In this document: positions 33,617 to 34,398 of the stretch, piece after piece
How the letters are laid out: every line of letters starts with the position of its first letter
Numbering within the stretch: position 1 is the stretch's first letter
Assembly: GCF_003334815.1 (NCBI RefSeq)
Contig: NZ_QOWO01000001.1
Strand: one strand, 5' to 3'
From: Escherichia coli
Lineage (GTDB): Bacteria > Pseudomonadota > Gammaproteobacteria > Enterobacterales > Enterobacteriaceae
DNA: 64,000 nucleotides
Made by a program: the position numbers and the translations under genes
Notes under the pieces: model-generated
The model's input: the letters and a program-made list of their open reading frames with translations, nothing else
Told to the model about the DNA's origin: nothing
Database searches by the model: none

Positions 33617-33984
33617 ACCCGCCGGAACGGTTTATTACGTACATCAGGTAAAACTGACCGATAAGCCGCTTTCTTTTGGGTATAGTGTCGTGGACAGTCA
33701 TTCATCTTTCTGCCCCTCCAAAAGTAAAAACCCGCCGAAGCGGGTTTTTACGTAAAACAGGTGAAACTGACCGATAAGCCGCTTTCTTTTGGGTATAGTG
33801 TCGTGGACAGTCATTCATCTTTCTGCCCCTCCAAAAGCAAAAACCCGCCGAAGCGGGTTTTTACGTAAACCAGGTGAAACTGACCGATAAGCCGCTTTCT
33901 TTTGGGTATAGCGTCGTGGACAGTCATTCATCTTTCTGCCCCTCCAAAAGCAAAAACCCGCCGAAGCGGGTTTTTACGTAAATC
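33617..33984 (-). repeat. 113-bp tandem repeats downstream of rnpB (three full copies plus a degenerate partial), each carrying a terminator hairpin
   Basis: Repeat units begin at 33645, 33758 and 33871 (exact 113-bp period); each contains aaaaacccgccgaagcgggttttt and a copy of the last ~40 nt of rnpB. Confidence 0.85.
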
Positions 33985-34361
33985 AGGTGAAACTGACCGA
34001 TAAGCCGGGTTCTGTCGTGGACAGTCATTCATCTAGGCCAGCAATCGCTCACTGGCTCAAGCAGCCTACCCGGGTTCAGTACGGGCCGTACCTTATGAAC
34101 CCCTATTTGGCCTTGCTCCGGGTGGAGTTTACCGTGCCACGGACTGTTACCAGCCGCGCGGTGCGCTCTTACCGCACCCTTTCACCCTTACCTGATCCCG
34201 CTTGCGCGGGCCATCGGCGGTTTGCTCTCTGTTGCACTGGTCGTGGGTTTCCCCCCCAGGCGTTACCTGGCACCCTGCCCTATGGAGCCCGGACTTTCCT
34301 CCCCTCCGCCCGTCTCCCCCGAAGAGGACGACGACGAAGCGGCGACTGTCTGGTCAGCTTC
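33985..34361 (-). ncRNA. rnpB: RNase P RNA (M1 RNA), 377 nt
   Basis: Reverse complement matches the M1 RNA sequence from GAAGCUGACCAGACAGUCGCCGCUUCG at the 5' end to GGUCAGUUUCACCU at the 3' end. Confidence 0.95.
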
Positions 34362-34368
34362 GGCGCGC

Positions 34369-34398
34369 AGTATAGAGGGTTTGCGCGCCCTTGTCACC
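34369..34398 (-). promoter_or_regulatory. rnpB sigma-70 promoter
   Basis: On the minus strand, TATACT at -8 to -13 and GTGACA at -32 to -37 relative to the M1 RNA 5' end, with 17-nt spacing. Confidence 0.6.

Follow-up and report, generated by a model that had tools for sequence, protein, structure and literature searches.

A strain-variable tandem array of rnpB 3'-end-like units and terminator hairpins behind the RNase P RNA gene of Escherichia coli

In the Escherichia coli sequence analyzed here, a single stretch of 64,000 nt (the window), the RNase P RNA gene rnpB is followed by a tandem array of 113-bp units that begins inside the 3' end of the gene itself, carries intrinsic terminator hairpins and varies between strains from zero to at least four units beyond the gene's own 3' end. 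Very probably, this is a K-12-type rnpB accompanied by a minisatellite of redundant back-up terminator modules that are dispensable and recombine with one another. The extra units are probably near-neutral, and we regard them as dispensable because about 30% of E. coli genomes do without them. An array of 113-bp repeats 3' of rnpB in K-12 was reportedly described by Reed and Altman in 1983, and no difference separates those repeats from the window: locus and sequence are the same, with about 3.5 copies of 113 bp, each holding a terminator-like hairpin and a short open reading frame (ORF). Since the window is identical to K-12-type sequence, the array was already known, and what is added here, a census of copy number across strains and arrays in other genera, is modest.

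The rnpB locus and the layout of the array

rnpB is a class A bacterial RNase P RNA gene: the covariance model RNaseP_bact_a (RF00010) matched over its full length (model positions 1 to 367 of 367) in cmscan, with 318.6 bits (E=1e-104) where the gathering score is 100, which upholds the 377-nt M1 RNA recognized in an earlier reading made from the letters alone (the sequence-only reading). In Term-seq data, the mature M1 3' end follows ...UUUCACCU, equivalent to window position 33985 (Adams et al. 2021 supplement, PMC7815308); the dominant end lies at MG1655 3270216 on the minus strand, with flanks identical to those of window 33985 (PMC7815308 supplement). Read along the minus strand, the locus runs from the end of garK through the rnpB promoter, rnpB, the tandem array, a REP/BIME element and a decayed array remnant to the 3' end of the convergent gene yhaC (Table 1), which is the gene exposed to any transcription reading through the array.

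Table 1. Features of the rnpB locus, with positions counted from the first letter of the window
Feature	Position	Strand	Basis
yhaC, convergent with rnpB	32184-33371	+	ORF and RefSeq annotation
Decayed array remnant: tail-/terminator-like sequence, linker, head-like AGATGAATAAATATCTACGG	33407-33480	-	Repeat families, strain comparison
REP/BIME element, inserted in the distal array	about 33491-33599		Sub-threshold Rfam naRNA4 and ES036 (REP-derived)
Unit 3: head, spacer and tail intact; terminator decayed (AAUAAACCGUUCCGGCGGGUUUCAG)	33595-33707	-	Unit comparison, folding
Unit 2, 113 nt, with T3	33708-33820	-	TRF, repeats, folding
Unit 1, 113 nt: rnpB-3'-end-like head, 18-nt spacer, P1-3'-strand-like tail, T2, linker	33821-33933	-	TRF, repeats, folding
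Unit 0, 101 nt: last 50 nt of rnpB, 36-nt precursor trailer with T1, 15-nt linker	33934-34034	-	Phasing, folding
rnpB, RNase P RNA (M1 RNA), 377 nt	33985-34361	-	Rfam RF00010 covariance model
rnpB promoter: -35 GTGACA (34392-34397), 17-nt spacer, -10 TATACT (34369-34374)	34369-34397	-	Consensus scan
garK (glycerate 2-kinase)	34394-35539	-	ORF and RefSeq annotation of identical locus

The RefSeq annotation of garK was taken from a locus 100% identical over a 1,201-nt query (window 33300-34500); there the gene measures 1146 nt, encodes 381 aa, starts at 35539 and ends 32 nt ahead of rnpB, whereas the program-made ORF reaches an upstream ATG at 35620 (408 aa; 34394-35620). Immediately upstream of rnpB lies a sigma-70 promoter, GTGACA-17-TATACT, with 10 of 12 consensus matches, a spacing within the 16- to 18-nt range, a -10 hexamer ending 7 nt ahead of the +1 at 34361 and a GC-rich discriminator preceding that +1. 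The sequence-only reading had the -35 hexamer overlapping the garK stop codon. The overlap is real, with the TGA (34394-34396) falling within the hexamer, but the hexamer occupies 34392-34397 and not 34393-34398. Upstream of rnpB, about 25 Enterobacterales species keep a GTGACA/TATACT-like pair, and the TGA inside GTGACA is likewise used as the upstream gene's stop codon in several genera. These include genera with a garK-linked rnpB as well as Pantoea and Erwinia, whose upstream gene encodes a C-terminal sequence unrelated to that of GarK (loci compared: L018-L128).

The gap of only 32 nt between garK and rnpB leaves no space for a terminator, which fits the published transcription unit composed of garP-garL-garR-garK-rnpB with its internal promoter rnpBp (bioRxiv 10.1101/2020.03.04.975888); the sequence-only reading had noted that garK read-through would run straight into the rnpB promoter. 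By CRISPRi, rnpBp is a functional internal promoter: targeting of the gar genes produced no fitness defect, and targeting of rnpBp or rnpB did (bioRxiv 10.1101/2020.03.04.975888).

Downstream of rnpB, TRF reported a period of 113 with 3.5 copies, 96% matches and 0% indels (score 716; 33615-34007), and a repeat search of the window found 197-nt copies spaced 113 and 113 nt apart, so that the 113-bp periodicity read from the letters is borne out and its origin by chance is no concern. The window thus holds the K-12-type 3'-flanking array, with 113-bp units in about 3.5 copies starting within the rnpB 3' end. With unit phasing anchored on AGATGAATGACTGTCCACGAC, the units start at rnpB positions 328, 429, 542 and 655, at spacings of 101, 113 and 113 nt, the 101-nt unit being rnpB's own 3' end. 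The extra units 1 and 2, which differ from each other at 3 positions, copy rnpB nt 328-348 and 355-377 together with the 36-nt trailer/terminator and the linker, and carry the 18-nt GCTATACCCAAAAGAAAG in place of rnpB AGAACC, a net insertion of 12 nt. It had been proposed that each unit duplicates the last ~40 nt of rnpB; the units do match 44 of the last 50 nt, but this net insertion means that they are not plain copies. The 1,201 bases taken from the window are 100% identical to several E. coli chromosomes, and in MC4100 and E. coli C, with 4 matches each, the extra unit shows 100% identity.

The array also reaches farther than first drawn, past its original left edge at 33617, with decayed remnants beyond the REP/BIME element. 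The segment holding this element is missing from the short-array E. coli strains L006, L007, L010 and L012-L014, and a query containing it found 9-49 matching places per genome; it is therefore a dispersed sequence. The portion of the decayed remnant from GTTTTTGCTTTTGG onward (about 33407-33451) is the same sequence that directly follows the first terminator, T1, in the zero-extra-unit strains L012-L014, which points clearly to it as the sequence that originally stood after T1.

Terminators and transcription past rnpB

The hairpin AAAAACCCGCUUCGGCGGGUUUUU is present in three identical copies, at 33952-33975 (T1), 33839-33862 (T2) and 33726-33749 (T3). All three consist of a UUCG loop on a 12-bp stem, each folds at -19.4 kcal/mol, which none of 200 shuffles equaled (z = -5.3 for T1 and about -5 for T1-T3), and each runs into the U-run UUUUUGCUUUU or UUUUUACUUUU. 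The array therefore contains three intrinsic (Rho-independent) terminators, each a stable GC-rich hairpin with an immediate U-run, in line with the sequence-only reading, which had also recognized a degenerate further copy: the fourth terminator (33606-33645) folds at -4.4 kcal/mol, no better than shuffles, and is decayed. A simple terminator scan recovered none of T1-T3, and folding found all three; the scan's tail rule fails here, since the A/U run is taken up in the stem, along with the first five U's. T1 is an established, characterized intrinsic terminator (PMC3643576). T2 and T3 share its hairpin exactly, and while T1 is the only one of the three to have been characterized, the same role in termination is predicted for both. 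Weak Rfam matches within the array (rnk_pseudo, rsmX, RsmY, isrB, istR) fell far below their gathering scores and were rejected as terminator look-alikes.

In series behind a highly transcribed stable-RNA gene, these strong intrinsic terminators resemble the stable-RNA tandem terminators of the rrnB T1-T2 type. Unlike the latter, they are identical copies that arise from duplication of a 113-bp module which also copies part of the RNA gene, and their number is polymorphic and can be as low as one.

RNase E cuts M1 precursors within their 3' trailer, after which they are trimmed (PMC1874595; PMC9945441), and in the MG1655 Term-seq table the mature M1 3' end is the only end listed at the rnpB locus (PMC7815308 supplement), although reads in repeated sequence may have been filtered out of that study (PMC7815308). 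RNA-seq coverage over the 800 nt downstream of the M1 3' end is 11,200, against 30,653 upstream, or about a third (PMC7815308 supplement). Comparison of RNA-seq with and without bicyclomycin places a Rho-dependent termination region antisense within yhaC, at MG1655 3269111 on the minus strand (PMC7815308 supplement), which corresponds to about 32880 in the window if the window is collinear with MG1655. Given the downstream coverage and this antisense Rho region, some minus-strand transcription goes through or beyond the array. As an alternative to read-through from rnpB, the downstream minus-strand RNA antisense to yhaC could start at a promoter-like site just inside the 3' end of yhaC (TTTAAA-16-TATAGT, 9 of 12 matches, 33361-33334, minus strand).

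Copy number in E. coli and arrays in other Enterobacterales

A single-unit query was compared with 5,426 complete E. coli genomes, with presence defined as at least 80% of an extra unit, and 3,658 of them hold such a unit. Across 5,399 genomes, the number of unit matches ranged from 1 to 9 per genome (median 2) and equals the number of units at the rnpB locus, with exactly 4 in K-12-type genomes. Two agreeing even-step samples of the ranked matches put the share of genomes with no extra unit at about 28-30%, with one at 23-28%, with two at 10-13%, with three at 23-28% and with four at 5-8%. Fifteen loci were inspected beside the window. Three of these have no extra unit (L012-L014), six have one (L004-L008 and L010), two have two (L002 and L003), L001 has three as in the window, and two have four (L009 and L011); the remaining locus, L136, is rearranged, with an inner duplication that takes in part of the REP. 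By name, O157:H7 has one extra unit, K-12, C and MC4100 have three, O104:H4 has four, and IHE3034 and like strains have none. In other E. coli strains the matched interval of the 1,201-base query is likewise shorter or longer, partly in 113-bp steps. The array is thus a copy-number polymorphism of E. coli, ranging from zero to at least four extra units, and the variation between strains that the sequence-only reading had suggested is confirmed.

This distribution also bears on whether the repeat might stand beside rnpB by chance, as an artefact of assembly or as a mobile or REP-like element of dispersed type. REP/BIME and insertion sequences are indeed present inside the array in some strains, and the Stbl4 assembly (L135, NZ_CP081009.1 4539474-4542625) has a stray copy in a chimeric region: a unit and a half lies there amid fragments of tRNAs and transposases and short segments that are duplicated, and it looks like chimeric assembly rather than biology. 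Against this stand the agreement between matches per genome and units at the rnpB locus, the chromosomal location of 13,013 of the 13,014 unit matches, and the same location in thousands of independent complete assemblies. We consider that this single-locus distribution excludes a mobile element or artefact, and give the idea a probability close to nil. The REP/BIME and IS621 are part of the distal array only as secondary insertions outside the repeat unit. In L008, L011 and L136, IS621 (IS110 family) is inserted in the array's REP/BIME between GGCGTAG and GCCTGAT; ATCAGGCCTAC, on the other strand, is the known REP target of IS621. One other E. coli strain has IS903B at the rnpB-array locus.

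The terminators themselves come in two types across strains, a short one (CCCGCUUCGGCGGG) and one that is 7 nt longer (CCCGCCAGCGUAAACCGGCGGG), and the unit positions at which they occur differ between strains, a pattern that is expected from unequal exchange between units. The long type (AACGAAAACCCGCCAGCGTAAACCGGCGGGTTTTT) was seen in L003, L005, L006, L008, L023 and L088, which comprise E. coli strains and E. albertii, and in L005 and L008 it stands directly 3' of rnpB. Short and long types also occur together in the arrays of Pluralibacter and Enterobacter sp. Bisph1. The neighbor of rnpB varies too: L014 (FDAARGOS_1301) and other 662-bp-class loci, from strains with zero extra units, have in place of yhaC an unrelated sequence with annotated fragments of hypothetical proteins, and certain other strains have a yhaC marked as a pseudogene.

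With a copy number that differs among strains, the array is a variable-number tandem repeat (VNTR), and like other bacterial minisatellites it consists of head-to-tail units of about 100 bp whose number is strain variable and partly lineage associated. No use of the rnpB-array locus as a VNTR was found in the literature searched. It is unlike other minisatellites in that one end lies within an essential RNA gene, which places unit 0 under selection and makes it a possible template that keeps the other units similar.

While the earlier description of the array as a known E. coli feature holds in that the window is identical to K-12-type sequence, it is too narrow, since arrays are also found in other Enterobacterales. 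In a scan of one genome per species with a 20-mer of rnpB nt 329-348, at least 120 rnpB loci were listed, of which 14, in 13 species that all belong to the Enterobacterales, show additional complete or partial units 3' of rnpB: Escherichia albertii, the divergent 'E. coli' record SCPM-O-B-8794, Citrobacter youngae, Enterobacteriaceae bacterium RIT691, Pluralibacter sp. UBA7423, Enterobacter sp. Ag1, Enterobacter sp. Bisph1, Cedecea sulfonylureivorans, Pantoea sp. IMH, Erwinia mallotivora, Pectobacterium betavasculorum, Brenneria roseae and one MAG labeled only 'Proteobacteria' that carries enterobacterial-type REPs. Among the loci listed, at least 19 Enterobacterales species had background scores, with no extra units, as did all of about 80 rnpB loci from other Gamma- and Betaproteobacteria. 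The units of different species are in the same phase, with periods of 105-126 nt and, in most, a related linker. Complete units share a related insertion of 12-13 nt, with consensus GCTyTnyATGAAA before AGAAmGCGGCTTAyCGG; the three partial ones (E. albertii, Brenneria and the MAG) stop within or before it. Unit tails are mostly closest to the rnpB tail of their own species (96-100% in E. coli, L088, Citrobacter, Pantoea and Pectobacterium). These patterns lead us to infer a module older than the split between these genera, often lost and re-expanded, and kept rnpB-like by gene conversion. After the last unit in L101 (Cedecea), L120 (Erwinia mallotivora) and L018 (Enterobacter sp. Bisph1) follows a common sequence, CTTCTTCTAAAACAATACGTTGGTGTGTC, which in Cedecea and Erwinia mallotivora is one arm of a long inverted repeat (...CACACCAACGG); since it is common to three genera at this position, a conserved element lies downstream of the array there.

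An alternative hypothesis is that the units are a selected RNA module, either spare M1 3' ends or decoys or entry sites for RNase E or 3' exonucleases that tune M1 RNA levels. As spare ends, the combination of P1 3' strand, RNase E site and terminator might allow M1 RNA to mature even from transcripts that have read through. The phase, the head, the AAGAA(A/C)GCGGCTTAyCGGTCAG core, the linker and the related 12-13-nt insertion are common from Escherichia to Pectobacterium and Erwinia, the P1-3'-strand part tracks each species' own rnpB, and the rnpB 3' flank influences the stability of P RNA through an RNase E site (PMC9945441). The restriction of the arrays to Enterobacterales, with 14 loci against none of about 80 other proteobacterial rnpB loci among those listed, could be read the same way. 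However, RNAalifold on 13 units from 9 genera gave a weak consensus helix of -6.55 kcal/mol in which 0 of 13 predicted pairs had a compensatory change, a single unit apart from its terminator folds no better than shuffles (z = -1.65), and cmscan found no Rfam family at threshold in the array; beyond the terminators, the units do not behave as a structured RNA by these measures. The arrays are also patchy, being absent from the at least 19 Enterobacterales species listed and from about 30% of E. coli genomes, and conservation of unit heads and tails is accounted for by gene conversion from the adjoining essential gene. A selected RNA module of this kind is, in our estimation, quite improbable.

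The units might instead encode small proteins, with read-through transcripts translated into a series of peptides. K-12 units each hold a 38-codon ORF (MNDCPRRYTQKK...) preceded by GGAGG, with GGAGGGGCAGAAAGATG upstream of each start and a stop codon overlapping the next ATG (ATGA); in the window these ORFs lie at 33815-33931 and 33702-33818, with a 33-codon ORF at 33604-33705. Some genome annotations label them 'hypothetical protein', and the 1983 description of the array is said to have pointed them out as well. Yet all 3 differences between units 1 and 2 change an amino acid (R7H, G21V, A32T), a stop ends the frame after 9 codons in Pantoea, Pectobacterium and the Enterobacter sp. strains Ag1 and Bisph1, and where it is open in other species the C-terminal halves are unrelated, so that neither a frame conserved in relatives nor an excess of silent changes was found. 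The ORFs are missing along with the units from about 30% of E. coli genomes, sit behind one to three strong terminators and are left unannotated by RefSeq PGAP. A cluster look-up gave no named homologue, returning only 'hypothetical protein' labels; unrelated long proteins that share clusters with the unit ORFs were set aside. Translation of the units into small proteins is thus very unlikely.

A model for the array and its meaning

In our reading, rnpB is transcribed from its own sigma-70 promoter overlapping the end of garK, and behind it stands a minisatellite built of 113-bp modules. Each of these is a paralog of the rnpB 3' end, in which sequences of the P2/P1 3' strands are joined to the trailer that RNase E processes, to an intrinsic terminator and to a linker, along with the 12-nt net insertion. 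The array would grow and shrink through unequal homologous recombination or replication slippage between units, and gene conversion with the selectively constrained rnpB 3' end would keep unit heads and tails similar; both unequal recombination and gene conversion are suggested by the patterns of variation described above. Deletions between unit 0 and later units may in this way swap the terminator that directly follows rnpB. The extra units would then serve a stable-RNA gene with strong transcription as spare terminators and so keep antisense transcription into yhaC low.

The in-phase units and the insertion common to the whole order exceed what a purely neutral minisatellite predicts, so some selection is possible. 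The module of rnpB 3' end, terminator, linker and its own 12-13-nt insertion could thus be an ancient Enterobacterales element kept by selection, beyond what gene conversion alone would do, although we think this unlikely. Such a module might be a fail-safe cassette that terminates T1 read-through and re-creates a processable M1 3' end. Alternatively, it might be a tunable insulator, with copy number adapting rnpB output or antisense transcription into the neighboring gene. If the module were selected, a terminator serving an essential RNA gene would be routinely swapped by recombination within the array.

Taken as a minisatellite of dispensable back-up terminators, the array in itself matters little, as it re-describes a textbook-era feature of K-12. 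Its variation is of more use. E. coli strains form a natural series in which from one to at least five hairpins, of which one to at least four are intact, stand in tandem behind a strongly transcribed essential RNA gene, and this series suits the measurement of back-up termination and of the effect of read-through on a convergent gene. The array is also a simple marker of lineages, whose length classes are separated by 113 bp, and a trap for short-read assembly and for the mapping of Term-seq and RNA-seq reads. Across the Enterobacterales, it illustrates how non-essential duplicates may stay recognizable throughout a bacterial order when the essential gene beside them serves as a template for conversion.
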